In this document: positions 5,287 through 64,000 of the stretch, in pieces | Numbering within the stretch: position 1 is the stretch's first letter | Layout of the letters: every line of letters starts with the position of its first letter | Origin: a virus | Taxonomy: Duplodnaviria > Caudoviricetes | Length of the DNA stretch: 64,000 nucleotides | Virus record (IMG/VR): IMGVR_UViG_3300028887_000075 | Location: 1-64,000 of that record | Strand: one strand, 5' to 3' | Made by a program: the position numbers and the translations under genes | Notes under the pieces: generated by a model | The model's input: the letters and a program-made list of their open reading frames with translations, nothing else | What the model was told of the DNA's origin: nothing | The model's database searches: none

Positions 5287-5309
5287 AATTTTTCCTCTTT
5301 CCATTGCGC

Positions 5310-5334
5310 AGTTTATCGTCTTTTGCTATATTTG
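5310..5334. promoter_or_regulatory. Back-to-back promoters: GATAAACT (minus) and TTGCTATATTTG (plus)
   Basis: AGTTTATCGTCTTTTGCTATATTTG; near-identical copy at 46332-46357. Confidence 0.7.
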
Positions 5335-5367
5335 GAGGCAACTGCTAACTAAAACGGAGAATTTCTT

Positions 5368-6537: not shown

Positions 6538-6870
6538 CTAGATAAAGCGCCTGGTGACAGGATTAGTGCAAAGGACGGCGACGGAGAGATGCTTCGTCGT
6601 CTTCTTTCTTATACGGACACGCTTCTTGCGTACCGGTGCCTGCACGGTAGGTGCCGGTGCCTTCGCCGGGGCTTCTGGTGCCTTTACCGGGGGCTGCACC
6701 GGGACCGCTACAGGTTCCTGCACTGGTGCTGCCGGTGGTTCCGGGATTGTTTCCGGTTCCTGCACTGGGGTCAACTCGGGGGTTTCCTCGGCTGCTTCCG
6801 GGAGGTCCCTGGGTTCTTCCGGGAGGATATTTTCCTGGTCATCTAAAATTTTCTTGCTTTTGCGAGCCAT
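6538..6870 (-). CDS. Pro/Glu-rich low-complexity hypothetical protein
   Basis: Start MARKSKK 8 nt downstream of TATAAACT (6879-6886, minus). Confidence 0.6.
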   Translation of the reverse strand: MARKSKKILDDQENILPEEPRDLPEAAEETPELTPVQEPETIPEPPAAPVQEPVAVPVQPPVKAPEAPAKAPAPTVQAPVRKKRVRIRKKTTKHLSVAVLCTNPVTRRFI

Positions 6871-6927
6871 ATAACCGGAGTTTATATTAGTTTCATTCCC
6901 AAAGAGAAAAACTCCAAGGAGATAACA

Positions 6928-7616: not shown

Positions 7617-7835
7617 TTATTTATATCGGTAGACTATTCTTCCCCGCCCTAGGTCATATGGACACAGTTCCACCTGTACCCTGTCATCGGGGTTCACCTT
7701 GATAGTATGCTTGGTCATCTTGCCGGAAGGTCTCACGAGCGCCTCGCACCCGTTGTCCAGTTCCACCAGGAAGAACCCGGAACCCCTGGCCTCCCTGACG
7801 GTGGCGTCGAGATATATGCCCTCTTCCTTAGCCAT
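7617..7835 (-). CDS. infA: Translation initiation factor IF-1
   Basis: 72 aa; MAKEEGI...FLVELDNG...SGKM...DRVQVELCPYDLGRGRIVYRYK. Confidence 0.92.
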   Translation of the reverse strand: MAKEEGIYLDATVREARGSGFFLVELDNGCEALVRPSGKMTKHTIKVNPDDRVQVELCPYDLGRGRIVYRYK

Positions 7836-8145
7836 CCGCCATCCCCAGCTTCTTCCTTAGATGGGACTCCACGAACACGTACTCCCGGTCGATGGCCGTC
7901 ACCTTCCCGTCCCTCTCGGAGAAAATGAGAACGCCGTCCCTGTTGCGGTAGACATCGCAGTCCTTCCTGCTCTTGGAACAGATTATGGTGATTACGAAGT
8001 CGGAATAGGTGTATCCCGGACCCCTCATGCCAATCAGCTCGACCGTCCCGGAGGTCCTGCACAGCTTCTTCAGGGCCTTCTCCACGCAGTAGCGGAAGTT
8101 CTCCTGGTCGATATTTAGAAGCATTTCTGGACTGGTATCTTGCAT
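7828..8145 (-). CDS. Hypothetical protein upstream of infA
   Basis: Start 8 nt after TATAAACT (8154-8161, minus); stop overlaps the infA start. Confidence 0.6.
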   Translation of the reverse strand: MQDTSPEMLLNIDQENFRYCVEKALKKLCRTSGTVELIGMRGPGYTYSDFVITIICSKSRKDCDVYRNRDGVLIFSERDGKVTAIDREYVFVESHLRKKLGMADG

Positions 8146-8173
8146 AAAAACAAAGTTTATATACTTTTTACAT

Positions 8174-8211
8174 GATAAACTGTTGACAAGTTGTGAATAT
8201 TGTGTTATTTT
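8174..8211 (+). promoter_or_regulatory. Tandem promoters for the sigma gene: GATAAACT and a sigma70-type TTGACA-17nt-TATTTT
   Basis: TTGACA 8183-8188; TG-n-TATTTT with hexamer at 8206-8211; GATAAACT 8174-8181. Confidence 0.6.
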
Positions 8212-8242
8212 TATGTCAACTAACCAGGGAACAAGCGCCGCT

Positions 8243-9061
8243 ATGGCTAAGGCTGCTGTAATGGACGAGGAAATCGACCAGCTGATGCGGGAGACCTCGG
8301 AATACAAGATTATAGGGAAGGAGGCCGAGACAGCCTGCTTCAAGATTTACCACGGGGACTACTCCAGGGAAATCCGGGAGGGGGCCAAGCTCAAGGTCAT
8401 CCAGTCCAACCTCCGCATGGCGCTGAAGCTCGCCATGGACTACCACAGGATGACGGGCATGCCGGTCTCCGATTTCTACACGGACGGCAAGCTGGGCCTG
8501 CTCGACGCCTTCTACCGATACGACTGGCAGACGGGGGTCAAGTTCGCATCGTATGCAATCTGGTACATGCGCACCCGCATGTCCAGCACTGTCAACGAGC
8601 ATGACCTCATTAGGGTTCCGGTACGCCTCAGGAAGAAGGTCCTCAAGGCCATCAAGGAAGGTAGGCCGACCGAGTGGATTCGCTACGGGCAGGAGGCCGA
8701 GTCAGCAATCATGCATACCTTCTCGATGGATACCCCGGTGGAATCCTGTGACGACATGGACGGCGACATCACGGTCGGGGACACCATTCCCGATGCAGCC
8801 ACCGAGACCACCCCTGTAGACCATGCGCACGAGGCCGAGCTGGTCCGGCAACAGCTGGACAACGAGCTGAAGACCCGGTTGACACCGGAGGAGAGTGCAC
8901 TCATCAGACACCTGTACGGTCTGGGAGGAGAAGAATATAGTTTGGATGATGTAGCGGCCGAGACAGGCTCGAGCAAGGACTGGGCGAGGAGGGTGAAGAC
9001 CCGCGCACTGGAAAAGCTCCGCGACGGCACCAGGCTCAACCGCTTGAGAACCGAGGTCTAG
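8243..9061 (+). CDS. RNA polymerase sigma70-family factor (regions 2-4); start may be 8213
   Basis: QSNLRMALKLA, GKLGLLDAFYRYDWQTGVKFASYAIWY, LIRVPV, and C-terminal HTH YSLDDVA...RALEKLR. Confidence 0.88.
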   Translation: MAKAAVMDEEIDQLMRETSEYKIIGKEAETACFKIYHGDYSREIREGAKLKVIQSNLRMALKLAMDYHRMTGMPVSDFYTDGKLGLLDAFYRYDWQTGVKFASYAIWYMRTRMSSTVNEHDLIRVPVRLRKKVLKAIKEGRPTEWIRYGQEAESAIMHTFSMDTPVESCDDMDGDITVGDTIPDAATETTPVDHAHEAELVRQQLDNELKTRLTPEESALIRHLYGLGGEEYSLDDVAAETGSSKDWARRVKTRALEKLRDGTRLNRLRTEV

Positions 9062-24737: not shown

Positions 24738-24837
24738 AAATCGGCCATCCGCGGAAATTTTCCTATAGTTTATCTTTCGCCCGTACGTTTTTTGCTATAT
24801 TTGGGTAGTCGAAACGAAAAATAACACAGGAAACAAG

Positions 24838-26560: not shown

Positions 26561-26588
26561 GGTTCGGAAAAATGATAAACTGCGGAAT

Positions 26589-29360
26589 ATGAATCGCTTC
26601 CGTAACTATCTCAGCAGAATCGAGGACAGGCCGCTTGCAGAGGCGGTCGGCCGCATGTACCATGCGCTGTTCGAAGGTCTTACTCCGCAACAGAAGACAC
26701 GCAGGACCATAAGGGCAATATTGAATCCTCCCCCGTCCGGATGGGATTCTCCTGCGGTACGTACCGACGGCTCCGAGTTCGTATCGGAACACGGTACCAC
26801 ACTTACCTGGGACCAGGTGCTGGAGACGTACCTGCGCGGGCTTGTCTTCCGGGACAAGGCGATTTCTCCCAAGTTCGAACCGGGAGTTGCACGTATTGCA
26901 TACGGGGAGCTCGGGGTGTGGCCTGAGGACATCGAGGACTTCCGCACGGAAAAGCCTGAAAGCAAGCCGCTCGGGCAGTTCAGGTCTATACTGCACATGC
27001 TGAGCGGGGACGCACATGTCAACGAGTACGACTTCGACCTGAACGGCCTCAAGTATGCGGAACTGGTTGACCGTTTCGGCAAGTCCAGTTCGGAGGCCGA
27101 TGCCGACGATACCGAGGACACCGGGGTACTCAACTATAAAATCGTACACATCCCGGACTTCGAGACGGCACAGGAATACGCCAAGTATACCAACAGGTGG
27201 TGCGTATGCCATTACCGGAACTACTTCAACAGGTACACAGCCCGTGGAAAGAACACGTTCTACATGCTGTTCGCTCCCGGGTTCGAGGACATGGAGGACG
27301 TGCACGGAGAGAACTATCCGAAGGACGAGTACGGGCTGTCGGTGATAGGCCCGATGATTGCCCCGGACGGAAGCGTGGAGTACTGCTGTGTCCGCCGGAA
27401 CCACGAGGGCGGCATGGGAGACCATGCACTTACCGAGAAGGAACTGTCCAGGCTGCTGGGGCGTCCGGTACGCAAGGTTCTCCCGCATATCGAGAACGAA
27501 TCAGCAATGAGCATAACCGCCAGGGTGAAGGCCCAGATGGCCAAGGGAATGAAGCCGGAGGAGATATACGGCTCGGTCGACGGGAGGCCCTGGGAGAATG
27601 CTACGATTTACCGGCAGAAGGACGGGACCAAGGTCCTGGTTGACAACAGCACTATGCTGCCGCTGGTCGACTACGAGCTGGATTCCTGGGGAAGCCTGGA
27701 CGATAGGGCTATATATGCCGACGTGGCTGTCGGGACGACCGAGTATGACGACGACATGTTCGTAACCTTCCTAATCCGGAAGGACGGTAGCGTGTTCGCC
27801 ATCGGGGCTTCCGACATAGAAGCGAGGGATGAATACGACCCGCTGTATTACGACGTGGTATCCAACATTTCATCGTCCGGCATAGCCGGCCTATACCACG
27901 TGCGTCTTGACAACGGATACAGTTGCGACCAGACACTGGTGTACTTGCCGGAAACTGGTGGACCGTTCGGAGTAACTGACATTCACGAGGAGATTACCGT
28001 CTATGCCGAAGACGGGCTTGTCGTATGCGACCCGGAAAGCGACACCTTGTCCAGTGGGGAAGGCGACCTGGAGATATTCCGAGTCTATCCTGATGGTACA
28101 CGGAAGGAACTGCTCGGTAACAATACGCTGGGGTCGGCGCCTATCCACGTGTTTGTCTGCGATGAGGGAATGCCCGACGGCAAGGTAAACGTACTATACG
28201 ATGATAGCGACGGCGAGCTGATAATTATTCATGATGGCGAGGAAAAGGGAACCGGCATATATGCGTACGACTTCGACTACATCGACAACCGCGTGTATCC
28301 CGGTGTCATATGGGTCGAGAAGGAGGACGAGCCCGGCTACTGCGTATATTCACTGAAGGACATGAAGCTACTTGCCGACAATCTCCCGGGTAAACCAGAC
28401 GACAGCGGTATATTCGAGGATGCCGACGGGCTGAAGAACATTGTTACCGGCCATGGAGTCCTGCTGGAACACCCGGCTTTAGCCATAGAGGTAACCGGGA
28501 GCTTCCGTACTCCAATCAGACTTGCTCTCCGGCACAAGGACGATAGGGGGCGATGGCACAGTTCCTACTTCATCGATGCGACTATGCCGGACGGCGAGCA
28601 TTTCGTCGACATGGATACCGGGAAGGAACTGTATGACAGGGCCATACCGAATGAAGCATACCCGTACACGGAGACCCTGTACGTCGGCCCCGTCGCCGAG
28701 GGAGACAAGACCAGGAGGGCCATGTTCACGCTCGATGGTAGACAGACTTCATGCTCGTTCGACAAGCTGGACATGATAAGCGAGATAATTAAGCGATGCG
28801 ACAAACAAGGCAAGGCGACCGGGTACAACCTGGTTAATCCTGATACCGGGAAGGAGCTGTTCCCTGATTGGCTGGCGTCTCGCCCGGAATTCCTATCGGG
28901 GTCGATGGTAAAGGACGGCATCGACCGTGGCCTGCTACGCTGCACCCGTGAGGACGGCAAGAAGACGATAGTCATGATGCTTACACCGGTGGAAGTCAAT
29001 AAGGACAATGGTACTGAAAAGATAGGCAACAGCCGGTTCGAGATGACCGACCTCGGGTGGCACGACCACTTCGAACAGGTACCCGGCTGCCCGTTCGTCC
29101 TGCTGATACATGACTCGTCTACCGGGAAGATGCCCGTGGAGTCGAAGAAGTACCTCACTGTGGCATACGACTTGCGCACCGGGAAGCATACCGGGAGATA
29201 TCCTGGCCCAAGACTGATAGCGACATTCCGGGCGCTATGCAAGGAGTACGGTGCCGACCTGGACAACCGGGGCATAGCGAGTACGCTCTCCGTATGCCCG
29301 GAATGGACCGAATGGATTGACGCACACATAAATACTGCTGAAAAGTGGAGGGAAGACTAG
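26589..29360 (+). CDS. ALFE-leader family protein with large acidic beta-rich C-terminal region
   Basis: YHALFEG; conserved core; ATG 7 nt after GATAAACT (26574-26581). Confidence 0.8.
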   Translation: MNRFRNYLSRIEDRPLAEAVGRMYHALFEGLTPQQKTRRTIRAILNPPPSGWDSPAVRTDGSEFVSEHGTTLTWDQVLETYLRGLVFRDKAISPKFEPGVARIAYGELGVWPEDIEDFRTEKPESKPLGQFRSILHMLSGDAHVNEYDFDLNGLKYAELVDRFGKSSSEADADDTEDTGVLNYKIVHIPDFETAQEYAKYTNRWCVCHYRNYFNRYTARGKNTFYMLFAPGFEDMEDVHGENYPKDEYGLSVIGPMIAPDGSVEYCCVRRNHEGGMGDHALTEKELSRLLGRPVRKVLPHIENESAMSITARVKAQMAKGMKPEEIYGSVDGRPWENATIYRQKDGTKVLVDNSTMLPLVDYELDSWGSLDDRAIYADVAVGTTEYDDDMFVTFLIRKDGSVFAIGASDIEARDEYDPLYYDVVSNISSSGIAGLYHVRLDNGYSCDQTLVYLPETGGPFGVTDIHEEITVYAEDGLVVCDPESDTLSSGEGDLEIFRVYPDGTRKELLGNNTLGSAPIHVFVCDEGMPDGKVNVLYDDSDGELIIIHDGEEKGTGIYAYDFDYIDNRVYPGVIWVEKEDEPGYCVYSLKDMKLLADNLPGKPDDSGIFEDADGLKNIVTGHGVLLEHPALAIEVTGSFRTPIRLALRHKDDRGRWHSSYFIDATMPDGEHFVDMDTGKELYDRAIPNEAYPYTETLYVGPVAEGDKTRRAMFTLDGRQTSCSFDKLDMISEIIKRCDKQGKATGYNLVNPDTGKELFPDWLASRPEFLSGSMVKDGIDRGLLRCTREDGKKTIVMMLTPVEVNKDNGTEKIGNSRFEMTDLGWHDHFEQVPGCPFVLLIHDSSTGKMPVESKKYLTVAYDLRTGKHTGRYPGPRLIATFRALCKEYGADLDNRGIASTLSVCPEWTEWIDAHINTAEKWRED

Positions 29361-33563: not shown

Positions 33564-34221
33564 TGTCCACCTCTGCGTCCACGCGGACGAGCCTGCGGCG
33601 GCCGCTCGGGTCGCGTACGGTAAGCCTCGTCTGGAGGTCCGGTCCCACGTCGGCGACGAACTGCCCGTTCTCGCCAACCTCGTTCTGGATTTCCTCCATC
33701 GTGCGCCTAATCATGTACATCAGTTGCTCCCGGTTGCCAATCTGTACTAGCCCGTTGGCCGACTGGAAGGTGCCGTCGCCGTTGTCGGTGACATTGTTGA
33801 GAATCTGGGGCACGATGGAGCGTACGTTCTCGTTGACACCCATGTCGTCCATGATTCTTGTCATGCCCTGCTCGGTCTCGATGTCGGGAGCAGCAGCGTC
33901 TGCCTGGGGGATTTCCTGGGGCTCGTTCACGGGTGCCCCGTCGGGGAGCAGCCGGTTGGCACCGGGATACTGCACGTCCACCGGCTGTAGCCCCGGGAGG
34001 GCCCTGCGACCGGCGCGTGCCCTGCGTTCCTCGCCAATCATGCCGAGCAGCGTGTGCATCGCGCCCAGCATCTCCTGTTCAGCAGGGCGTTCTCCCTGCT
34101 GGCACCGGGAGATTACGTTGAAGACACCGGCGAGCGGGTTGTCGTTCCTTCCGTTGCCGCCGTATACGTCCTGCCGCCTGGTAATGTTGTTTCCTGGCAT
34201 CGTCGCCCCGTACTTATTCAC
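33556..34221 (-). CDS. Hypothetical protein
   Basis: GTG start 6 nt after CATAAACT (34228-34235, minus). Confidence 0.65.
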   Translation of the reverse strand: MNKYGATMPGNNITRRQDVYGGNGRNDNPLAGVFNVISRCQQGERPAEQEMLGAMHTLLGMIGEERRARAGRRALPGLQPVDVQYPGANRLLPDGAPVNEPQEIPQADAAAPDIETEQGMTRIMDDMGVNENVRSIVPQILNNVTDNGDGTFQSANGLVQIGNREQLMYMIRRTMEEIQNEVGENGQFVADVGPDLQTRLTVRDPSGRRRLVRVDAEVDNG

Positions 34222-34285
34222 TCCGGTAGTTTATGGGTGTTTGTTGGAAGCCACCGGGATAAACTGTCATATGTCGGGTAATTAG

Positions 34286-35901: not shown

Positions 35902-35942
35902 ACGACGGTCCACATTCCGGCATTTTTTGCTATATTTCCGGT

Positions 35943-36131
35943 ATGAGAAGAGTATACTGCATATTTACCGAGAACTGCTCCCGGAGAAGGGAGCTGGCAA
36001 CGGGCCGTGTCTACGCCGACCTGTCTACCGCTATCGCCGACCTGAAGAAACTGGTGGCCACCGGGAGGTACCCGGAGGCCGGAATCAGTCCCGTGGAAGT
36101 AGCCGGCGATGAACGGAATGATAGGTGTTGA
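35943..36131 (+). CDS. Small hypothetical protein, probably leaderless
   Basis: ATG 6 nt after TGCTATATT. Confidence 0.45.
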   Translation: MRRVYCIFTENCSRRRELATGRVYADLSTAIADLKKLVATGRYPEAGISPVEVAGDERNDRC

Positions 36132-36251
36132 AACCACCATAGCCAGCAACTTGAATCGTTGTGCATCGCGTCATGAATTTGGCGCGGGGTTCGTGCGCCT
36201 TGCGGCGCTCCGGTCCCGTTCGCTCTAGGCCCAGAAGGGCCTAGGCTCACA

Positions 36252-36968
36252 TTAGGAATCCTTGACGAGCCGAACCGAGAAACCGGCGTTCTTGTAGTCC
36301 GTATCCTGGTACATCGTAGCACCCGTATCAAAGTTTCGGCGATAGGCACGACTACCACTCTCTGTAATAGTCCAAAAGTAAGCGTAAGAACCAACATTGA
36401 TGAAACTACCATAGTAGAGACCTGCGGGAAGAACTCCGAAACCGTAATCGTCAGTACCTCCCCAAGACGTAGCCCAACTGACATTTGCGGCCTTGAGTTT
36501 AGTTCCTGCCGTAGATGTCCCGCCGACTGCGTTGGCAAGTGCCGTCCACTCATCATTTGTCGGAACGTGCCAACCCGGACAGAGCGTAGCCCTGTTGTCA
36601 TTCAGAAACTTTACGGCGTACCAGTTGTACAGCAACCCGCATTTTCTAATGCCATCAATGCCATAGGTTGCTTCGTCATTATTGTAATACCAAGCGTTAG
36701 GAGTAGATGGTGTACCGCTACCACCGATATTGCAACCGCTGAACTTGTAGTCAAGATTTTCGGCAAGCCATTCAACTCCACCGATATTGACAGTCCTATA
36801 CGTCCTTCCGACAACAGACCCGCCGCCACCACCACTAATACTAGCAATAAGGTCGGGACAATCATCCAACGCACTCCCGGCAGGCACGTCAACGCCCTTG
36901 TCGCTTATTGCTTGCAATATATCGGACTTCACGCCCTGCAATCTTGTAATTTCGCTTGCAATGCTCAT
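36252..36968 (-). CDS. FISUMP (Fib_succ_major-like) domain protein; possible DGR target
   Basis: WLAENLDY, GLLYNWYA, CPGWHVPT, YFWT, GFSVRLVKDS; two hairpins after the stop. Confidence 0.82.
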   Translation of the reverse strand: MSIASEITRLQGVKSDILQAISDKGVDVPAGSALDDCPDLIASISGGGGGSVVGRTYRTVNIGGVEWLAENLDYKFSGCNIGGSGTPSTPNAWYYNNDEATYGIDGIRKCGLLYNWYAVKFLNDNRATLCPGWHVPTNDEWTALANAVGGTSTAGTKLKAANVSWATSWGGTDDYGFGVLPAGLYYGSFINVGSYAYFWTITESGSRAYRRNFDTGATMYQDTDYKNAGFSVRLVKDS

Positions 36969-36977
36969 AGTTCCTCC

Positions 36978-37451
36978 TTACAGTGCAGCCAGCAGCGATT
37001 CCACGTTGCCGATTTCGTCTTCCACGCTCTTCTGTGTCCAGTGTGCCGCCGTCCAGTCCTCGGATGTGGAGATATCCGTGTTGGCCACGTAACGTAAACC
37101 TCCGTACATACAGGCAGTCCCTGTTGCGACCGGGAATGTCAGGTCGGCATAGTCAGGTGCTAATGCTGTAGCAAATGAAGCATCTGAACCGAGCACAATT
37201 CCTTGTTGATTATCTTGAACGAACTTTAATGGGCTATCAGAATCTACACCGATAGGCACTCCGTTAAGCCCTACGTTCACTGTTGTCTGGTCCTGAGATA
37301 CTTCGGATGTAAAGTAATCATCGTCAAATTGTAGATTCTTCGCCTCGTCTATTGCTTGACGAGCCTCTGTGTCCACCGGAACTAACAAATAGACATTTCC
37401 ATCTTTGTCAGTTACCCTAAATTTTTTCATATTTCCATTTGTAGTTGACAT
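36978..37451 (-). CDS. Fibre-associated hypothetical protein
   Basis: C-terminal YGGLRYVANTDI...WTAAHW resembles small carbohydrate-binding-like modules; within the fibre operon. Confidence 0.55.
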   Translation of the reverse strand: MSTTNGNMKKFRVTDKDGNVYLLVPVDTEARQAIDEAKNLQFDDDYFTSEVSQDQTTVNVGLNGVPIGVDSDSPLKFVQDNQQGIVLGSDASFATALAPDYADLTFPVATGTACMYGGLRYVANTDISTSEDWTAAHWTQKSVEDEIGNVESLLAAL

Positions 37452-37465
37452 ATAAATATAACCTC

Positions 37466-38197
37466 TTACTTATAATATTTATTAGTAGGAATTGTAAATG
37501 ATTGAAGGTTATTAGAAAAATCACCGTTACGAATTGATAAAAATTCCACATTAAACGTTGAAAAATAGCTAGCACTTTTAATATAAATCGACCCATTATA
37601 TATAATAGTTCCTAATTTAACTTTACATTGTAAAACACCATCTGCAAATCCATAAGCATACAGTTCATTTACATCAATTACTATCGCACAATGAACTTTA
37701 TTAGTATACCGGGTATTTGTTTTTATGTATATATTACTTGAATCTTGACCAAATACATAAGCATTATTGTATAAAGTATACCCTAGTCTATTATTACCGT
37801 AAATGCAAAACCTGGCACATTTATCGTTAGAATCATAGTCAAAAGCAGATATTCCTAAATCAACGTGTTGCCACCCACCGTAAATTCCAACCTGCATTTG
37901 TGAATACATTGTTTCTAATGTAATATAATCCATCTGCTCATAAGATATAGTCCCTGCACTATACGGATTATTTAATATACTAGAATCATCAACTCTTATA
38001 GCCTTACTTCCTGTAAACGCATAAGAATCTACAAGACTAACACACTTTACTTGGCCTGATAAATTAGGCCCTACTTTACTCTTAATGAGAAGTCCATCAG
38101 TACTAAGATTATCACAATTATTTAAAAACAAAAAGTCGGAACCCCACTTGCACAGGTAACTGCTTCCGCCAATTTTCACTTTCAATAAATCGCTCAT
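37466..38197 (-). CDS. Putative lectin/LamG-like beta-sandwich protein (AT-rich)
   Basis: KVHCAIVID...GFADGVLQ...LSIRNG pattern. Confidence 0.5.
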   Translation of the reverse strand: MSDLLKVKIGGSSYLCKWGSDFLFLNNCDNLSTDGLLIKSKVGPNLSGQVKCVSLVDSYAFTGSKAIRVDDSSILNNPYSAGTISYEQMDYITLETMYSQMQVGIYGGWQHVDLGISAFDYDSNDKCARFCIYGNNRLGYTLYNNAYVFGQDSSNIYIKTNTRYTNKVHCAIVIDVNELYAYGFADGVLQCKVKLGTIIYNGSIYIKSASYFSTFNVEFLSIRNGDFSNNLQSFTIPTNKYYK

Positions 38198-38211
38198 ATC
38201 GTTACCTGCCT

Positions 38212-38850
38212 TTATTCTAAGGACTTTACGAGACGGATGTACGTACAATCTGTTTTAGCATAATATGATTCGGAATTCATACTGCTAGGCCCAAATACTA
38301 ATCTATAATAGTAGTTCGTTCCAACCTTAGGTGTCATCTCAGCAAAACCAGCAAAGGTTCCAAATGAATCAAAAACATTATTGTAATGATTCCCACTAGG
38401 TATCACACAGAATCCATAATCATCAGTTCCATTCCATCCAGATGGCCAATTCGATGTTATTGAATTATCCAATGCCTTTAGTTTAGAAGCAAGCCCTTCG
38501 GTTATCGTTATCAAGATTTCATACTCATCCTTCGTAGGCACATGCCATCCGTCTGGTAGTAACGTTAACTTGTTATCCTCTAGGTACTTTGCAGCATACC
38601 AGTTATATAGCAAACCGCATTTATACGTCCCATCAATTCCGTAGTCAGTCTCATTATTGTTATAGTACCAAGCTGCTGGAGTAGTCGGAGGACCCCATTG
38701 CCCGAGGGGAATCTGACTGCCATTTACATCAAACTTGTAGTCCAGATTCTCAGCCATCCACAACTGATTACCTATTTTTACAGCCGGGTACCTGCGTCCA
38801 CCTATCTTTATAGAATATCTCTTTTCAAATTTTAATAATGAGCCAGACAT
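38212..38850 (-). CDS. FISUMP domain protein
   Basis: KIGNQLWMAENLDY, CGLLYNWYAA, PDGWHVPT, IRLVK. Confidence 0.82.
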   Translation of the reverse strand: MSGSLLKFEKRYSIKIGGRRYPAVKIGNQLWMAENLDYKFDVNGSQIPLGQWGPPTTPAAWYYNNNETDYGIDGTYKCGLLYNWYAAKYLEDNKLTLLPDGWHVPTKDEYEILITITEGLASKLKALDNSITSNWPSGWNGTDDYGFCVIPSGNHYNNVFDSFGTFAGFAEMTPKVGTNYYYRLVFGPSSMNSESYYAKTDCTYIRLVKSLE

Positions 38851-38868
38851 AAATCAATATCCTGTACT

Positions 38869-39489
38869 TTAAATATATTTGCACAAACGTAAAGAACACC
38901 CCGGTTTTCCATTATTCGGGGCGTTGTTGTAGGCACTTGAACTTGTTATAACTAGTTGCGTATCTGGTGTCTCATACATCCAAAATCTACATTGTGAACC
39001 CACATTGTAAAAATTGCCGTCATCGCCACGGAATCCAGCAGGGACGGCATTAAATAGCAATTGGTTTGTACCATTCCAACCGCTTATATCTTCTTTCTTC
39101 CATTTGTTCGGGTTGCTATAAAGGCCATTATCATACAATGTTCTTAAATTGTTCCAAATACTAGCGTAAGTTGCTACAGTCCATCCATCACTTAATTCAT
39201 TATTGATTATTGGAATTGCAAATTTATTATAAAGTAATCCGTATTTTTTTCCATTCCATCCAAACTCACTTTCATTGTTATTTGGATACCATGCCGCAGG
39301 AGTTGTCGGAACACCAGCAACACCAATATATACACCACTAGGAGCAAAATCAAGATTTAGAGTTGTAAATAAAATACCTCCGTATTGATTATAAGGATAC
39401 TTTTTACCGCCTACATCAACTGCTCCTAATGCTTTTTCATAATCAATTTGTTTAACAATAGTTCCATACTGAGAATATAATACAGACAT
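38869..39489 (-). CDS. Divergent FISUMP domain protein
   Basis: YGLLYN, FNAVPAGFR, RFW, SLRLCK. Confidence 0.72.
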   Translation of the reverse strand: MSVLYSQYGTIVKQIDYEKALGAVDVGGKKYPYNQYGGILFTTLNLDFAPSGVYIGVAGVPTTPAAWYPNNNESEFGWNGKKYGLLYNKFAIPIINNELSDGWTVATYASIWNNLRTLYDNGLYSNPNKWKKEDISGWNGTNQLLFNAVPAGFRGDDGNFYNVGSQCRFWMYETPDTQLVITSSSAYNNAPNNGKPGCSLRLCKYI

Positions 39490-41054
39490 TAGTTACCTCC
39501 ATTGTTCACTTGAGGACTAAAATCAAGATGCAATTCTTCATTCACGGAATCATAACTTACAGTAACTGAACTAACATCGCCCCAAGTGCCGTCGCCTCGT
39601 AAGGCCTTGCTGGAATCTCCCGGTGTAGCAGCAGGTACCAACCCGGCCGTTGACCCGGCAAATACGGGAGCCTTGGTCGTTAGGTCATTGTAGCTCCCGG
39701 TTGTAGCCACGGTTGCCAGGGTAGCAAGCTTCTCCACCATCGAGTCGGTCATCAGGCCACCCGTGTAGGTCGGCTCGGAAGGAACCGGGGTGTCCTTTAC
39801 GAGACGTATGGACATACCGTATGCATCTGAGTCGTAATCTTCGTCTATGCCGGTTCGGTCATCGAGATAGTAGTAGTAACTGTTCTTTACACCATTGATA
39901 GTGCCATAAGATGTGGATGTCCAGAAGTATGCGTAACTATCTCGTCCAGTAAATTCCTTATAGTTACTGGTATATACCGCGGCATAACCAGACGGAAGCG
40001 CCTTAAATTCATATGTGTCGTCTCCGTTCCAACCGGAAGGCCAGTTGCTGGTAACGGACTTGTTCTTGGCTTTTATGCTCGTGCCTGCGTTACCGGTAAT
40101 CGACTTACGTAACGCCGCCCATTCTTCCCTGCTGGGAACGTGCCAACCGGGACATATGGTAGCCCTGTTGTCATTTATGTATTGCGCAGCCTTCCAGTTA
40201 TACAGTAGGCCACACTTGTAAGTTCCGTCTATACCGTAATCTGCCTCGTCGTTGTCATAGTACTGCGCGCGCGGAAGCGAGTAGTCGGAAGTTAGGTTCA
40301 GGTAGAGACCCTGCCACTTGTAGTCGAGGTTCTCCGCCAGCCATTCCTTGCCGTCTGGCATTGTGACCGTCTTGTACGTATGGCTACCTATGGTGACCTC
40401 GTGTACTGGGATATCTACTTCGGCATACGGGATGGTAACGGTCTTGTTGACCGGGACAAGTTCGTCCTCCCCGGCATTGACATGCTCGATAACATTGACT
40501 TGCGCACCCGAAGCTATATTGTCAAGCTTCGACTTGTCGCTCCCGGACATCGCCCCGTTCACCCCGGAAGCTGCCAGGGGAATCGTCACGGTGGTCCCGG
40601 ACTTCAGGTTCTCGCCTGAGCCTATCCTTACGGACTGCACGGCGGAATCGGCGGCGGCTCCCTGCGAGGAGGATGCGTAGTCCGAGTGCTTGTGACCCGA
40701 GTCGGTAAGGTTCCCGTTGCTGTCAAGACCGGCGAAGTTGCCGGACGTAGCCCCCGATACCTTCTCGGCATATCCGCTAAGGTCGAGCGAGGTGTCCCCT
40801 ATACATTCCCACTCGCCTTCCTCGCCCTCGGGTTCTGACCAAATCCATTCCTTGTATATGTCGGAACCGGTCGTGCCCGAAACGGCGACCAGGTAGATTA
40901 TGTTGGTCTTCGGGCTGTCTACGTCCGGATGGTTGTCGGCCCCGGCCGGGTCAGCCGTCTGGAAAGACTGGAACTTCCCTATTTCAACCTTCAGGCGGCG
41001 GAAAAGTTCCTTGGCGCCCTCCTTACCTACGAATACCTTCTGTTCAGACATCAT
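39489..41054 (-). CDS. Tail fibre protein with an internal FISUMP domain
   Basis: Fibre motifs (GAMSGSDKSKLDNI, ATVATTGSYNDL, ALRGDGTW) flanking WLAENLDY...SIRLVKD. Confidence 0.78.
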   Translation of the reverse strand: MMSEQKVFVGKEGAKELFRRLKVEIGKFQSFQTADPAGADNHPDVDSPKTNIIYLVAVSGTTGSDIYKEWIWSEPEGEEGEWECIGDTSLDLSGYAEKVSGATSGNFAGLDSNGNLTDSGHKHSDYASSSQGAAADSAVQSVRIGSGENLKSGTTVTIPLAASGVNGAMSGSDKSKLDNIASGAQVNVIEHVNAGEDELVPVNKTVTIPYAEVDIPVHEVTIGSHTYKTVTMPDGKEWLAENLDYKWQGLYLNLTSDYSLPRAQYYDNDEADYGIDGTYKCGLLYNWKAAQYINDNRATICPGWHVPSREEWAALRKSITGNAGTSIKAKNKSVTSNWPSGWNGDDTYEFKALPSGYAAVYTSNYKEFTGRDSYAYFWTSTSYGTINGVKNSYYYYLDDRTGIDEDYDSDAYGMSIRLVKDTPVPSEPTYTGGLMTDSMVEKLATLATVATTGSYNDLTTKAPVFAGSTAGLVPAATPGDSSKALRGDGTWGDVSSVTVSYDSVNEELHLDFSPQVNNGGN

Positions 41055-41719
41055 TCAACCTCGTCTAGCCATGCGTCCATCTCGAGCGCGGTGCATTCCC
41101 TTGCCGCGTCTACTTCTCCCCAGGTGCCGTCTCCCTTGAGGAATTTGTCCTGGTCACCTGCCGATGGTGCTGGTACAGCACCGGGCTTCCCGTCCTTGTT
41201 CGCGGTAGCCCCGGTGAAGTCGTACACGCCGAGCGGGCTGCCCGGGCGGCCGTCTCCATAGAGGACGTCAACGGATTCCTCGTCTATCACAACGGGGAAC
41301 TGGACAGCGCTTACCGTGTAGTTGGAACCCTCGTCGGTAACTTCCTTGCTGACCTTGACGTGGTCTCCCGGAAGCACCTCGGTCTTGTCCGCGTCGGTCG
41401 ACACGGTGTACTTCCACACGAGGTCGTCCTTCTCGACCTCCAGCTCGATGTTCCTCCCGGCGACGAGCTCGACATCGGGCGGGTTCCTGTAAATCCTGGG
41501 AGGGCACGTGCCTTCCGGTTCCGGCTCCGGGTCTGGCGCCGGGCCCGGCGGGCAGCATCCGGGACCTGCCGGTACCCACGGGCCCATACCGCGGTGCATC
41601 GGGGCGCCCCCGTACATCATGTAGTCGAACTGGTCGGGGTAGGTCCTCGACGGGATGTACTCGCTCGGCCCCTTCTGCGGGGGAGGCGGTGGAGTCTGGC
41701 AGTTGCACGGCTTTTTCAT
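41051..41719 (-). CDS. Pro/Cys-rich fibre-associated protein
   Basis: ATG 7 nt after GATAAACT (41727-41734); C-terminal GAVPAPSAGDQDKFLKGDGTWG fibre motif. Confidence 0.7.
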   Translation of the reverse strand: MKKPCNCQTPPPPPQKGPSEYIPSRTYPDQFDYMMYGGAPMHRGMGPWVPAGPGCCPPGPAPDPEPEPEGTCPPRIYRNPPDVELVAGRNIELEVEKDDLVWKYTVSTDADKTEVLPGDHVKVSKEVTDEGSNYTVSAVQFPVVIDEESVDVLYGDGRPGSPLGVYDFTGATANKDGKPGAVPAPSAGDQDKFLKGDGTWGEVDAARECTALEMDAWLDEVE

Positions 41720-41732
41720 AACCGTGAGTTTA

Positions 41733-42491
41733 TCATTCTTCTTCCGGGAGCGGCTCGCCGAGGCTGAACTTGACGCCAGGTTCTCCCTGGTCGTCGAACA
41801 CTTCGTCGACACTGAGCATGTTGGCCTTTATGCGGCGGATTTCGTCGAGTTCCTTGGCCATGTTCTTCTCGAGCTCGTCGAGCCTGCGGAGGTCCGCTTC
41901 CGGAGTATGCGATGAGACGACGTAGGTCTTGTCGCCGGTGCCCGGTTCGACAATCTCCTGCACGTCCGTGTTGTCGCCGGAGACGACGGAGACGTCCCTC
42001 TTGGCGAGCCAGTAAATCTTCGGGTGCGGCGCCTGGACGTTGGAGTCGTAGTCCACCGGGTCGATGTAGGGGTTCGGCTTCTCGACGAGCGGCTGTACGC
42101 ATACCGGGGTTCCCGTTCCCGTGACCGAGGTGACCGCGTGCGGTTCCGGCTTCGGCGGCTTGGGCGGTACGGGTACCGGACAGCAGCACTGGGGCTTGGG
42201 CGCGGGGACTACCGGGAGGACCACGGTTCTTCCGGCGGCCGGGTTCACGATGGGCTTGGTATCCTTGCCCCCGTGCATTCCGCAGGGGATGGGGGCGTGG
42301 TCAAGTGCCGGTACGCAGGGGGGAGCCGGTCTCGGGCCGGGCATCGGTCCGGGGTGCGGTCCCGGGCAGCACTTGGGTGGAGGGGGCTGAATGGGTATGA
42401 AGTAGGGATGGCAGACCGACATCCAGTGGTTCTGCGGCACTATCGCGTTCCGGTATTCCGGTACAACCTTGTCGAACGGGGTGCGCGGCAT
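41733..42491 (-). CDS. Pro/Cys-rich protein
   Basis: PPPKCCPGPHPGP, QCCCPVPVPP; C-terminal coiled segment. Confidence 0.65.
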   Translation of the reverse strand: MPRTPFDKVVPEYRNAIVPQNHWMSVCHPYFIPIQPPPPKCCPGPHPGPMPGPRPAPPCVPALDHAPIPCGMHGGKDTKPIVNPAAGRTVVLPVVPAPKPQCCCPVPVPPKPPKPEPHAVTSVTGTGTPVCVQPLVEKPNPYIDPVDYDSNVQAPHPKIYWLAKRDVSVVSGDNTDVQEIVEPGTGDKTYVVSSHTPEADLRRLDELEKNMAKELDEIRRIKANMLSVDEVFDDQGEPGVKFSLGEPLPEEE

Positions 42492-43940: not shown

Positions 43941-44075
43941 TGTCCTTTGTTGGAATTGTTTCCTGGTCTGTCTCTACCGAGTTTAGCATTTTTCTGGCGA
44001 TATTGGGGCATAGGGCATCATTCCATGTTGGAATAGTGCACAAAAATCCGAAGCCAGCTCCGATAAACTACCGGC

Positions 44076-44744
44076 ATGCAAGACCTAGAATCACTCACAG
44101 AACTGGCCGCCTGTCTTGGCCGCGGATATGCCGCCTTGGTGGAGGCAGAAGACAAGGTCCCTCCCGGTAACACCCCGGAGCAGTCCGGCGGCAAGACCGA
44201 CGAAGGCCCCGAGGACGTAATGAAGGCGGTCGCCGGTATAGCCGGCGCGGTGCTTTCCCCGAGGATTACCGAGACACTCCAGAACGGCGGGAAGCCGTCG
44301 TGGAAGGATATCCTGGGCGACGCGGCCGAGCTCGGCATCTCGTTCATCCCGGGAGTCGGCGGGGTAGCCAAGCTGGGAAGGCTGCTGAAGGCCTCCCGGG
44401 TAGGCATCAAGGGCGCCCAGCTTGCCAACAAGGTGTCCAAGTCCAAGGCCGGGCTGAAGGCGGCCAAGGTCGCCTCGGCTGCGAAGAAGCACCTCTCCCC
44501 CGAGCAGCAGAAGGCCGCGATGGACTTCATGGAGAAGCTCCGTGCGGGCGCCGTCAAGAAGGTCGAGAAGGAACTCAGGATGGACCTGGAGACTACCGGG
44601 GACAGCAAGAACTACAGGGAACGGCTGCAGGCCCAGGTGCCGAAGATGAAGGAAACCGCCGCCAACTACGCCAGGAAGGTCGCCGAGAAGGTGAACTCTG
44701 CCATCGGCGGCCAGGAAGGTGACACAGCTCCGGTTCCCGCATAG
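44076..44744 (+). CDS. Putative virion protein with YAALVEA leader and IPGVGG segment
   Basis: ATG 6 nt after GATAAACT (44062-44069). Confidence 0.65.
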   Translation: MQDLESLTELAACLGRGYAALVEAEDKVPPGNTPEQSGGKTDEGPEDVMKAVAGIAGAVLSPRITETLQNGGKPSWKDILGDAAELGISFIPGVGGVAKLGRLLKASRVGIKGAQLANKVSKSKAGLKAAKVASAAKKHLSPEQQKAAMDFMEKLRAGAVKKVEKELRMDLETTGDSKNYRERLQAQVPKMKETAANYARKVAEKVNSAIGGQEGDTAPVPA

Positions 44745-46311: not shown

Positions 46312-46377
46312 TTTTGCTTCTCCGAATTGGAAGTTTATCGTCTTTTTGCTATATTTGGCAATAAAAAGAGGTTCAAT

Positions 46378-51600: not shown

Positions 51601-51673
51601 GCGGGAGTAGTTCAGTAGGTAGAACGCGACCTTCCCAAGGTCGAAGTCGAGGGTTCGAGACCCTTTTCCCGCT
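51601..51673 (+). tRNA. tRNA-Gly (anticodon CCC), CCA not encoded
   Basis: Acceptor GCGGGAG/TTCCCGC; D arm GTTC..GAAC; anticodon arm CGACC-TTCCCAA-GGTCG; T loop TTCGAGA. Confidence 0.93.
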
Positions 51674-51699
51674 CTAAACTCTAAACTCTAAACCCTAAA
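51672..51699 (+). repeat. (CTCTAAA)x3 + CCCTAAA tandem repeat in the tRNA trailer
   Basis: Read directly from the sequence. Confidence 0.85.
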
Positions 51700-51713: not shown

Positions 51714-52145
51714 ATGTCAGAGAAAATTACCGTGCAGTACCTGGACGACACTGTCAAGCGTCTCAGCATCAACGACAAGGGAGACTGGATTGACCTCTAT
51801 GCGGCGGAGACGGTCGAGATGAAGCAGGGCGAACACAAGCTCATCCACCTGGGAGTAGCCATGAAGCTCCCGGAAGGCTACGAGGCGCACCTCGTTCCCC
51901 GCTCGTCCACCTACAAGAAGTGGGGCATCATCCAGGCCAACCATGTTGGCATCATCGACAACTCCTACTCCGGGCCGAACGACTGGTGGATGCTCTCGGC
52001 AATCGCCATGCGCGACACCCGTATCGAGAAGGGCGACAAGATTTGCCAGTTCCGCATTATCCAGCGCCAGCCCGAGATAGAGCTGGCCGAAGGGAAGATG
52101 GAAGGTGCCGACCGGGGAGGCTTCGGGAGCACCGGCACTAAGTAG
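51714..52145 (+). CDS. dut: Trimeric dUTPase
   Basis: [31 protein letters not shown]. Confidence 0.93.
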
Positions 52146-52219
52146 CCATCACCGGCTACTTTTTTGCTATATTTGAGGCACAAGAAACTTACAAACATCA
52201 ACCGACAAGGAATCAACAA

Positions 52220-53038
52220 ATGGCCATTAAGGTTCATACCAAGACAATCTCCCCGGCTATGGCTAAGTCCATGCTGGAAACTTCCTACTCCCTCGGCGTC
52301 ACCAACCGCAAGGTGAGCAATCGTCATGTCGACATCTATGCGGAGGAAATGCGTTCCGGCCGTTGGAAACTCAACGGTGTCGCCATCAAGCTCGACTCCC
52401 AGGGCGGCATCCTCGACGGTCAGCATCGCCTCCTCGCCTGCGTCCAGTCCGGCGTCCCCTTCCAGACCATCGTGATGAACGGGGTAGACCGTGACACGTT
52501 CGACACGCTTGACTGCGGACGTGTCCGAACCACGGCACAGGTTCTCCAGATGGCGAACATCAAGTACAACTCGCTCATCGCCAGCATCATCCGCGGAGTG
52601 GCCGAAATCCGCACCGTCGGAAACATGTCCTACAAGGAGAAACCCATTTCCAACACGGCCTCCCTGGAGGAATACAACAAGCATTCCGCCGCATACGACA
52701 TGGCTGCTGCAATCGGTGCCACGGCCGTTGCCGGTACCAAGGCGATGACCGCCAAGATGTGCGGAGCAATCTACTACCACCTCACCCAGGACCTCAAGCA
52801 GTCCAAGGAAGAGGTCGAGAAGTTCATCCGCGAGATTACCTCTTTCGACAGCAGCAAGAATCCTATTGTCGACAAGCTCCGCAAGTGGAACCTTGCCAAC
52901 CGTGGAATGAAGGTGTCCGACCGTAACCGTCTCGGATATACCATCCTCACCTGGAACGCCATGGTGAACAAGGCAAGGACCGCCCCCAAGTTCTGTGAGG
53001 CGAGCCTCAAGGATTTCCCTGAGTTTGCGGTCAAGTAA
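52220..53038 (+). CDS. Protein with ParB/Srx-like N-terminal domain (DGQHRL)
   Basis: NRKVS...YAEEMRSGRW..ILDGQHRLLA; promoter at 52164-52175. Confidence 0.6.
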   Translation: MAIKVHTKTISPAMAKSMLETSYSLGVTNRKVSNRHVDIYAEEMRSGRWKLNGVAIKLDSQGGILDGQHRLLACVQSGVPFQTIVMNGVDRDTFDTLDCGRVRTTAQVLQMANIKYNSLIASIIRGVAEIRTVGNMSYKEKPISNTASLEEYNKHSAAYDMAAAIGATAVAGTKAMTAKMCGAIYYHLTQDLKQSKEEVEKFIREITSFDSSKNPIVDKLRKWNLANRGMKVSDRNRLGYTILTWNAMVNKARTAPKFCEASLKDFPEFAVK

Positions 53039-53047
53039 AGGAGAAAG

Positions 53048-53737
53048 ATGCGTAACAATTTCTTCATCAAGTCCCCCGTAGTCGAGCTCCTCGACGAAAA
53101 TCGCAAGTCCCTCGGCACGATGCCGTCGGGAAAGGCCAAGGACTTGGCCAATGCGAAGGACATCATGCTCGTCCTCGTCGACGGGCGTGCCAACCCTCCT
53201 GTATACGCTCTGGGTAATGGACCCGAGGACGAAATCATCACGGAGACCGTCCGTCTCCTGGATTCCGACCGCGAGTTCATCGGCATCGTGAGCGCAGCCG
53301 AGGCCAGGAAGATGGCCACGGAGCGCGAGGAGGACATCATCGTCCTCAATGTCAAGGCCGACCCGAACGTCTGCATGCTCGGCGACCGCAAGAAGTACGA
53401 GTACGACAGGAAGAAGGCTGCGAAGGAGAACGACAAGAAGCAGCGTCTGGCCGCGAAGGCCAACGAGCTTAAGGAGCTGAAGCTCCCGGCAGACACGTCG
53501 GACTCCTCAAAGGGTGACCGGATGAGGCTCTTCGAGAGGGCGAAGGAATTCTCCGCCGAGGGACACCCGGTCAAGCTGACCGTGCGCTTCCGCGGCAGGC
53601 AGATGTCCCACGCCAACGACGTCATGGACCGTCTATACGACGAGGCCGTGGCGACTCTCGAGGGGATAACGGTTTCGAGGCCGGTAGCCGCCGGCAACTT
53701 CTTCTCTATGATGTGCCAGCCGGCAAAGAAGAAGTAG
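53048..53737 (+). CDS. infC: Translation initiation factor IF-3 homolog with duplicated N-terminal domain
   Basis: Two IF3-N-like units, basic linker KKYEYDRKKAAKE, C-domain VKLTVRFRGRQ. Confidence 0.8.
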   Translation: MRNNFFIKSPVVELLDENRKSLGTMPSGKAKDLANAKDIMLVLVDGRANPPVYALGNGPEDEIITETVRLLDSDREFIGIVSAAEARKMATEREEDIIVLNVKADPNVCMLGDRKKYEYDRKKAAKENDKKQRLAAKANELKELKLPADTSDSSKGDRMRLFERAKEFSAEGHPVKLTVRFRGRQMSHANDVMDRLYDEAVATLEGITVSRPVAAGNFFSMMCQPAKKK

Positions 53738-53760: not shown

Positions 53761-53797
53761 GGGCGACCCGGGAAACTCCCGGGCGCTTTTTTATTTT
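53761..53797 (+). terminator. Intrinsic terminator
   Basis: CCCGGGA-AAC-TCCCGGG stem followed by a T tract. Confidence 0.75.
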
Positions 53798-53838: not shown

Positions 53839-53867
53839 TTGACAAGCTGAAAATAGTTTTTTAATAT
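53839..53867 (+). promoter_or_regulatory. sigma70-type promoter TTGACA-17nt-TAATAT
   Basis: ACTGTTGACAAG is identical to the -35 context upstream of the sigma gene. Confidence 0.6.
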
Positions 53868-57233: not shown

Positions 57234-57254
57234 TTTTTTGCTATATTTGGTGGC

Positions 57255-57794
57255 ATGAAGAATGCCAAGAAGAAAAAGACCGCCAAGGCCGCTGAGCAGA
57301 ACCAGCAAAAGCTCAAGGTTGTCAAGAAAAGCGACAATCCACCGACATACCAATGGGTTCGCGACGAAGATTGCAAGCCTAAAAGCAATCTTACCATAGA
57401 AATGCCGGTTACTCGCCCGTCAATCCCCACGAGCTGGATTACCACCTCCCTGGACGACATCAAGCTGCCCCGCGACTGGGGCGACATCCCGGACTATGTT
57501 CTCCGGCAGTTCACCGATAGCGCTCCCGGTAGGTCCCTGGAAAGCGAGGTGGAGCTCGACCACGTGTTCAGGCTGACCTACACGACGAAATCCTACATTG
57601 CTACCGTCCAGGTCAACATCGGCGACTGGAAGGACGAGATGGGCGAATCCATTCGTGTCGAGTCGACCACCTGGAAGGAACAGGCAAAGTACAAGGTGCA
57701 CGGGTCCGCATCGGGAAACGACATAGCGAAGCATGTCAACCTGAAGATACTATACGACCGCATAATGGACGACCTGGAGAAGTTCGGGGGCTAA
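57255..57794 (+). CDS. Hypothetical protein, probably leaderless
   Basis: ATG 7 nt after TGCTATATT. Confidence 0.7.
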   Translation: MKNAKKKKTAKAAEQNQQKLKVVKKSDNPPTYQWVRDEDCKPKSNLTIEMPVTRPSIPTSWITTSLDDIKLPRDWGDIPDYVLRQFTDSAPGRSLESEVELDHVFRLTYTTKSYIATVQVNIGDWKDEMGESIRVESTTWKEQAKYKVHGSASGNDIAKHVNLKILYDRIMDDLEKFGG

Positions 57795-63388: not shown

Positions 63389-63412
63389 CCATGCCGGTAT
63401 AAACTCCCGGTT

Positions 63413-64000
63413 ATGCAGATGATATTCAATGAACCCGGGCCGGTATTCGAGGCGGCAAACCTTGCGTTCAACGCCCTATTTGAAGGCGTAAACGTCGCAA
63501 ACGCGCTCAGCAAGGCCAGGCACGACCTAATCAACGACTACGAAGTCGCTCCCGAAAATGCAGCATACATAGTGAACCTGGTAAAGAATACCGTGTTCGA
63601 CCCGATGGCCGCTCCCGGCGCGAAGCCGGAATCCGACCCGACGGTAAAGAAGTATATCAGCCTGATGCCCATTATCGCACGGTACGTGGCCAAAGAAATC
63701 ATCGAGATGCATTTTGGCGAGATAAACGAGAATACCAGGCAGCGTACTGCCTATCTCGGAGAGGAAATCCGCAAATATCTGGAATCGACCCCAAATCCGA
63801 ACCTTGACGAGAGCAAGTTGTTTGAACTGGACAAGGCCGGTGCATATAACGTGACCAACACGGTACCCAAGGATATGGGCTATAAGGCGATTCCGGTCAA
63901 GTCATCCGCAGAACTTAACCGGAAGCTGGTCGAACTCGGGGCAGACGAGGTACCGTGGTGCATAAGGAAGGAGGACCCGTGGAGGTCGTATTCCAATGAC
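63413..64000 (+). CDS. Partial ALFE-leader family protein (runs off the window end)
   Basis: MQMIFNEPGPVFEAANLAFNALFEG...YKAIPV...PWCI...WRSY; ATG 7 nt after TATAAACT (63398-63405). Confidence 0.75.
   Translation, partial: MQMIFNEPGPVFEAANLAFNALFEGVNVANALSKARHDLINDYEVAPENAAYIVNLVKNTVFDPMAAPGAKPESDPTVKKYISLMPIIARYVAKEIIEMHFGEINENTRQRTAYLGEEIRKYLESTPNPNLDESKLFELDKAGAYNVTNTVPKDMGYKAIPVKSSAELNRKLVELGADEVPWCIRKEDPWRSYSND

Follow-up and report, generated by a model that had tools for sequence, protein, structure and literature searches.

A second, conserved N-domain in the IF-3 of a clade of huge phages that probably infect Fibrobacterota

Bacterial translation initiation factor IF-3 (infC; TIGR00168; PDB 5lmn chain X and 8jsg chain A) is built from three parts. 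The N-domain contains the motifs VRL and KKYEY; it is followed by a helical linker of basic character and by the C-domain, which contains RFRGR..H. Two alternative sites have been described for the N-domain (IF3N), one on the platform near uS11 and one at the tRNA elbow (PMC8266586). In E. coli IF-3, the residues that contact the elbow of the initiator tRNA are R25, Q33 and R66, and the role of the N-domain has been described as unclear (PMC9723500). IF-3 is autoregulated via near-cognate (weak) start codons in E. coli and Flavobacterium (PMC7797042).

Huge phages are already known to code for IF1 and IF3 (Al-Shayeb et al. 2020, PMC7162821; Iyer et al. 2021, PMC7824862). The IF-3 proteins of jumbo and huge phages (PHROG 9787), e.g. 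those of Serratia phage BF and Agrobacterium phage Atu_ph07, are often encoded beside other translation genes, have a single N-domain and comprise about 160-180 aa. Mitochondrial IF-3 carries lineage-specific additions in the form of short extensions, and mitochondria translate leaderless mRNAs (PMC6352543, PMC6321546). In leaderless genes of Actinobacteria, Deinococcus and others, a -10 element (TANNNT) is found ~6-8 nt before the start codon, leaving no room for a Shine-Dalgarno (SD) sequence (PMC3160421, PMC4633059).

The phage IF-3 reported here has the motifs and the linker of bacterial IF-3, to which it is 28-34% identical, with TM-scores of up to 0.78 (target-normalised). It differs in being phage-encoded and in having a second domain of the IF3N fold (N1) in front of the canonical one (N2). 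Its gene has no weak start codon but begins with ATG behind a strong SD, and the elbow contacts are changed at two of three positions in N2 and at all three in N1. It is virus-borne like the members of PHROG 9787, which have only one N-domain. The likeness to mitochondrial IF-3 is confined to the presence of lineage-specific additions: the mitochondrial ones do not form a second folded IF3N, and homology of the added parts is not claimed. Many gene starts of the phage resemble those of the leaderless genes of Actinobacteria and Deinococcus, but they follow two phage promoter classes (TAAACT, class A; TGcTATATT, class B). To our knowledge, phage-borne IF-3 and IF-1 as such are known from sequence alone. 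Phage IF-3 is already known; the conserved second copy of the N-domain is new.

Domain architecture, conservation and distribution of the phage IF-3

The analysed window consists of the first 64 kb (64,000 nt) of an IMG/VR virus record of 170,734 bp (G+C 54.7%; CheckV completeness 41%). The source is the rumen, the phage is very large, and the record is a piece of its huge genome. The IF-3 gene (53048-53737, plus strand) starts with ATG and codes for a protein of 229 aa, which was assigned by Pfam, TIGR00168, an AF2 model and Foldseek. With the infC equivalog model TIGR00168, the protein scores 108.8 bits (curated cut-off 60). Pfam detects IF3_N in two stretches of the whole protein, followed by IF3_C, so that the order is N1-N2-linker-C instead of the classic architecture with one N-domain, a linker and one C-domain. 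When the pieces are scanned apart, N1 (residues 6-53; 53063-53206, plus strand) scores 35.1 bits and the N2 piece (residues 63-128; domain at 53228-53431, plus strand) scores 51.7 bits, both above the cut-off of 26.9. A whole-genome Pfam scan recovered both places within one open frame. N1 covers profile positions 4-51 of 70 and lacks the start of the linker helix, while N2 covers positions 3-70 and continues into the Lys-rich linker helix (residues 114-138). The assignment of IF3_C (residues 140-225; 53465-53722, plus strand) is marginal, because its scores of 33.8 bits in the whole protein and 36.7 bits for the piece alone straddle the Pfam cut-off of 34.8; it is supported by Foldseek matches to 1tig, 6vrj and 2ife and by the conserved RFRGR..H motif. 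An alignment with IF-3 from E. coli and Thermus begins at phage residue 60, and VRL, KKYEY, the basic linker and RFRGR..H are retained.

The AF2 model, built from 58 sequences (pLDDT 82, pTM 0.43), predicts the same beta-beta-alpha-beta-beta fold for residues 11-55 and 67-112; residues 114-138 form a long helix, which leads to an alpha/beta C-domain. Because of the low pTM, the placement of N1 relative to the other domains is not fixed by the model. The top Foldseek matches obtained with it are IF-3 chains (E down to 4e-14). The first-pass annotation had described tandem N-domains ahead of the linker and C-domain and had proposed a search for two IF3_N domains by AlphaFold and Pfam; both methods return two such domains, followed by the Lys-rich linker and IF3_C.

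The additional domain is conserved. On pairs with less than 85% overall identity, the mean pairwise identity is 67% for N1, 63% for N2 and 64% for the C-domain, but 44% for the variable tether of ~9-10 residues that joins N1 to N2 (longer in P0064, P0067 and P0068). The conservation of N1 thus equals that of N2 and C and exceeds that of the tether, which shows that N1 is under selection. Its identity is ~40% with the N-domains found in one-N IF-3s and 27% with the N2 of the same protein (BLASTP, E 2e-8), which argues that the duplication or capture behind it is old. The positions equivalent by alignment to R25, Q33 and R66 are E13, S21 and A54 in N1 and R69, F77 and M110 in N2, so that none of the three elbow-contact residues is kept in N1 and one is kept in N2. 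N1, although selected, is therefore unlikely to contact the tRNA elbow in the known manner. With one of three contacts left, the canonical role of N2 is uncertain as well. Overall, the two-N IF-3 is conserved and probably functional.

A word-indexed search returned 66 relatives of the phage IF-3, of which 62 have at least 220 aa and align across both N units, down to 43% identity. The largest contig with such a two-N relative measures 471,965 bp. When 1.84 billion cluster representatives were searched exhaustively, 3,603 IF-3 matches were obtained; among the best 150 of these, N1 and N2 are both present only in P0048, P0067, P0068 and the fragment P0072. On viral contigs, three of 23 IF-3 loci have the two-N form (L004, L005 and L006 only). 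It was not found among the 77 bacterial IF-3 loci recovered, all of which have the length of a one-N protein, and of 151 genomes sampled within a single phylum, 149 have exactly one IF3_N match. This agrees with the view, taken in the first-pass annotation, that cellular IF-3 has one N-domain. The PHROG 9787 profile matches the phage IF-3 with E 1.8e-27, its positions 7-163 of 168 falling on residues 60-222, so that N1 lies outside the profile. In named phages, the tblastn matches mostly start at residues 45-68 and none starts before residue 33, so that their IF-3s, too, correspond to N2 to C. The nearest protein-atlas clusters are mostly viral and represent one-N IF-3s of 163-178 aa. Full-text searches of the literature did not turn up any IF-3 for which two N-domains had been described.

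Transcription units of IF-3 and IF-1 and the promoter-abutting gene starts

The IF-3 gene is the second gene of a two-gene unit that is driven by the class B promoter TTTTTTGCTATATTTG (52160-52175, plus strand; -10 element TATATT at 52168-52173) and has a leader of ~46 nt. The first gene (52220-53038, plus strand) codes for a 272-aa protein of PHROG 5931, a family of unknown function. The SD sequence AAGGAG (53038-53043, plus strand) is located 4 nt ahead of the IF-3 ATG, and the unit ends with a terminator-like hairpin and T-run (53767-53793, plus strand). Another terminator-like hairpin (52140-52161, plus strand) closes the preceding dUTPase unit, and its T-run enters the class B promoter. 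At this junction (52140-52175), the terminator T-run doubles as the T-tract ahead of the promoter, which may be the reason why class B promoters have a conserved T-tract. A tRNA-Gly gene (anticodon CCC; 51601-51674, plus strand) is found just upstream of the dUTPase gene. Downstream of the unit, a promoter of a third type, the canonical TTGACA-17-TAATAT (53839-53867, plus strand), which is unlike classes A and B, precedes an exonuclease gene.

Further genes behind class B promoters code for an RNA ligase, an exonuclease and a clamp-loader-like ATPase. Because class B promoters also precede genes of nucleotide metabolism, IF-3 is probably made early; class A promoters are the putative "late" ones. 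Both are tentative assignments by gene content, and PHROG and Pfam attributed no function to the nine class A genes tested. In the probable host lineage (see below), the IF-3 gene is an open frame without an ATG at the expected N-terminus, which fits the weak-start autoregulation known elsewhere. Judged by its ATG and strong SD, the phage gene has escaped this type of control.

The infA gene (7617-7835, minus strand) is present at the position given in the first-pass annotation. It codes for a protein of 72 aa with a PF01176 score of 67.1 bits (cut-off 30.2), in agreement with the S1-like domain and the length of about 70 aa that characterize IF-1. Within a class A unit it comes second; its ATG lies in an 8-nt overlap with the end of the preceding ORF, and a hairpin follows. 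The first gene of the unit (7828-8160 including its promoter, minus strand) is a 105-aa ORF without a family match, with ATAAACT at 8160-8154, a spacer of 8 nt and an ATG at 8145. The divergently oriented gene at 8183-9061 (plus strand) codes for a sigma factor of the phage that contains Sigma70 regions 2 and 4 and is a candidate for the recognition of ATAAACT, the class A motif. IF-1 is encoded by this phage and by all three of its two-N relatives.

Ten genes had been listed in the first-pass annotation as starting 6-8 nt after a -10-like hexamer. All ten sites could be verified, the hexamer being TAAACT or TATATT. Eight of them conform to [T/G/C]ATAAACT-N6-8-ATG/GTG (starts at 2101+, 6870-, 8145-, 26589+, 34221- with GTG, 41719-, 44076+ and 63413+) and two to TTTTTTGCTATATT-N6-7-ATG (35943+ and 57255+). 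The strand had not been given; by our count, it is the minus strand for five of these genes. On the plus strand, ATAAACT-N7-ATG opens a 368-aa ORF (2087-2103), with an in-frame stop upstream and no other start between, a 923-aa ORF (26575-26591) and a 560-aa ORF that extends beyond the window end (63399-63415), while ATAAACT-N6-ATG (44063-44078) opens a 222-aa ORF without an alternative upstream start. Minus-strand sites are ATAAACT-N8-ATG (6868-6885; 110-aa ORF), ATAAACT-N7-ATG (41717-41733; 222-aa ORF) and ATAAACT-N6-GTG (34219-34234; 221-aa ORF). The class B sites, both on the plus strand, are GCTATATT-N6-ATG (35929-35945; 62-aa ORF) and GCTATATT-N7-ATG (57240-57257; 179-aa ORF, again without an alternative upstream start). 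An additional site that was absent from the list is ATAAACT-N5-ATG at 5302-5316 (minus strand; 191-aa ORF), which is back to back with a class B promoter at 5325.

Such back-to-back pairs, in which a class A and a class B promoter point in opposite directions a few bases apart (AAATATAGCAAAA-N3-5-ATAAACT on one strand), occur in the window at 5302-5335, 24767-24802 and 46332-46356 and in the remainder of the record at 74801-74822 and 83399-83422. An IS605-type TnpB gene (OrfB_IS605 and Cas12f-like TNB; record positions 92977-94268, L003:178-1469) begins 7 nt after ATAAACT, which indicates that a mobile-element gene uses a phage promoter class.

Across the entire record, there are 35 copies of ATAAACT (permutation median 11) and 45 copies of CTATATTT (permutation median 3). 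Although ~89% of the record is coding, 29 of the 35 and 38 of the 45 copies, respectively, are intergenic. When all 4096 hexamers were scanned for occurrence 5-8 nt before the ATG of coding ORFs of at least 100 aa (mean 1.1 per hexamer), TAAACT (12 of 50 copies), CTATAT and TATATT were leading alongside SD hexamers. The distance from the motif to the next start is bimodal, being either 5-10 nt, or ~16-60 nt with an SD in between, and this is the behaviour of promoters. About 24-29 of ~186 genes have a promoter-abutting start, which is an ATG in 21 of 24 cases; at least 15 of them lack any possible upstream start, and almost none has an SD-led alternative nearby. SD-led genes, the IF-3 gene included, number ~126 (about two thirds), and SD cores are found ahead of 35% of first ATGs vs 8% of internal ATGs. 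The abutting starts are a real feature. Their geometry, with a -10 element 6-8 nt ahead of the start and no SD, is that of leaderless genes, and the corresponding mRNAs are probably leaderless.

Related phages and the probable host lineage

The records with a two-N IF-3 share the promoter motifs. In G156, G157 (355 kb, 93% complete) and G158, GCTATATTT is present in 21, 34 and 23 copies, respectively, vs 3-4 for controls. The IF-3 of G157 is 41% identical to that of this phage. G157 has 22 TATATT-N6-9-ATG starts, mostly with a spacer of 6-7 nt and many with a TGACA -35 box, and nine cases of ATAAACT-N5-8-start (eight ATG, one GTG). The abutting arrangement is kept in two of 12 genes that could be matched between this phage and G157. 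In two huge phages with a one-N IF-3 (G159 and G160; L132-L162), the class A and B motifs and IF-1 were not found, both records being incomplete. These phages have [CT]G[AT]TATATA-N6-8-ATG in front of long ORFs in 16-17 cases each, and promoter-abutting starts may be common among huge phages that code for IF-3. A motif-free TANNNT spacer index works on this phage, G157, G160 and the Fibrobacterota genome G165; it fails on G159, where the hexamer is TATATA.

The best clue to the host is provided by the Fibrobacter succinogenes major paralogous domain (Fib_succ_major; TIGR02145/PF09603), which is found above the cut-off in four phage proteins and below it in a fifth. They are encoded at 36250-40400 (minus strand) and 4168-4632 (plus strand), with four of the five in a stretch of low G+C content at 36-40 kb (43% vs 55%), and they probably represent a module that serves receptor binding or is derived from the host. 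For the protein encoded at 36255-36968 (minus strand), a protein frame in G165 shows 62% identity (E 3e-64). Of the 51 Fibrobacterota genomes sampled, 33 contain matches to it, with as many as 51 in one genome, while in a sample of the phylum holding Ignavibacteria the best match had 43% identity (E 2e-26) and only one of 51 genomes was matched. Fibrobacterota use SD sequences, as does the phage; an SD share of 37% of genes has been reported for them (PMC10783764). The G+C content of G165 (53.5%) is near the phage value. Given the indirect evidence of the Fib_succ_major match, the use of SD sequences and the matching G+C content, the phage clade probably infects Fibrobacterota. Full-text searches found no description of Fibrobacter jumbo phages. 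A host search via the phage TnpB found no close relative in the bacterial genome collection.

Other assignments were considered. Bacteroidota have a sigma-A box TAnnTTTG at -12 to -5 (PMC9723704), which is matched by class B TATATTTG; the A of the ATG would then be +1. A Bacteroidia host was nevertheless rejected. The phage is SD-rich, while the Bacteroides phage crAss001 has an SD share of 9% (control 7-11%); there are TGACA -35 boxes in G157 and a TTGACA-17-TAATAT promoter in the window; and the Fib_succ_major protein is far nearer to Fibrobacterota. Jug phages (PMC12880540) have a G+C content of 27-30% vs 55% here and were set aside. Ribosomal protein S21 was not found in the record. A T9SS sorting domain gave no match in the record and no response in the T9SS control genomes either.

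The probable host lineage itself shows abutting starts. On positions 1-400000 of contig 1 of G165 (L163-L182), TANNNT is found 6-7 nt before 30 first ATGs vs 11.2 expected (P ~2e-6), and the signature TANNNT/TATATT-N6-7-ATG is found for 44 of 416 genes vs 23.6 expected. The hexamers at the peak are often TATATT or TACATT, with TATATT among the top hexamers. By the same measure (TANNNT at spacer 5-8), 10.6% of the genes in G165 and 12.3% of those in the phage are affected. Numerous genes of the leaderless type are thereby suggested for Fibrobacterota themselves; no paper stating this was found. G165 and the genome G174 each code for one IF-3 with a single N-domain; that of G165 is 32% identical to the phage protein.

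Possible roles of the additional N-domain

We consider it fairly probable that the protein is a working IF-3 paralogue, confined to one clade of huge phages (~350-470 kb) with Fibrobacterota as the likely hosts, and that it acts as follows. The parts that work on the 30S subunit would be retained, namely N2 with KKYEY, the Lys-rich linker and the C-domain with RFRGR. IF-3 from the early class B unit and IF-1 from the class A unit would hold and bias host 30S initiation during infection. N2 would handle the tRNA, while N1, since all three of its elbow-contact residues are lost, would probably sit at the other IF3N site, on the platform near uS11, or bind a new partner. One factor could thereby fill both sites between which the single IF3N normally moves. 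The abutting gene starts would copy the start style of the host lineage, for which a special factor is not needed. It is tempting to speculate further that both N-domains are bound at once, to the uS11 platform and to the tRNA elbow, and that the kinetic initiation checkpoint is rewired in favour of phage messages, possibly of those that begin with AUG at the 5' end; this stronger version we regard as unlikely.

In the first-pass annotation, the two-N IF-3 and the phage IF-1 were taken to be tuned to permit or favour leaderless phage mRNAs, which a normal IF-3 would reject. In its favour are the ~24-29 abutting starts that leave no room for an SD, and also the altered surface of N1 with its lost tRNA-elbow contacts. 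The underlying antagonism stands for E. coli, where IF-3 can inhibit leaderless translation according to a statement in PMC8459731 that cites Tedin 1999. Mitochondrial IF-3, which acts on leaderless mRNAs, has extra terminal parts (PMC6352543, PMC11775629). In G157, the two-N IF-3 is co-inherited with IF-1 and with both promoter motifs and their abutting ATGs, but co-inheritance inside one clade amounts to a single evolutionary event, and the arrangement itself persists in just two of the 12 matched genes. Most phage genes, that for IF-3 among them, are SD-led. Abutting ATGs are also present in the one-N phages G159 and G160, and G165 has the signature at a similar share (10.6% vs 12.3%) despite its one-N IF-3. 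As the host lineage has like starts with a one-N IF-3, a role in favouring leaderless mRNAs is unnecessary as an explanation, and we hold it to be improbable.

An equally doubtful alternative is competition with the host, up to shut-off. The extra N-domain would cause tighter or altered binding to 30S subunits and put host mRNAs at a disadvantage, or it would allow the phage factor to escape from a control of, or an attack on, host IF-3. The start of the gene is in keeping with this, as IF-3 is encoded in a probable early unit with an ATG and a strong SD instead of the weak start codon used for autoregulation (PMC7797042). The exchange of IF-3 between species alters the stability of the 30S complex in Flavobacterium (PMC7797042), and at 32% identity to the host-lineage protein the phage IF-3 is not a recent copy. 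However, no feature was found that would separate phage from host mRNAs, SD-led and TATATT-abutting starts occurring in both, nor was there a sign of a host system aimed at IF-3. That N1 is merely a functionless leftover of a neutral or decaying duplication is very improbable. The domain does stop 19 positions short of the profile end and is devoid of the three residues for elbow contact, but it is conserved like N2 and C down to 43% identity, which the tether is not; it folds confidently in the AF2 model; and it is old, being closer to other IF-3 N-domains (~40%) than to its own N2 (27%).

A working IF-3 paralogue with two N-domains, as we favour it, would be a natural probe for the two-site model of IF3N (PMC8266586), since one of its N-domains is devoid of the tRNA contacts. 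For a clade of rumen and gut phages of 350-470 kb, a probable host, Fibrobacterota, is now supplied. If both IF3N sites are indeed occupied by the one protein, it would be an initiation factor, universal among bacteria, that has been redesigned in the evolution of a virus, and it would be a natural tool to learn what the N-domain of IF-3 does.
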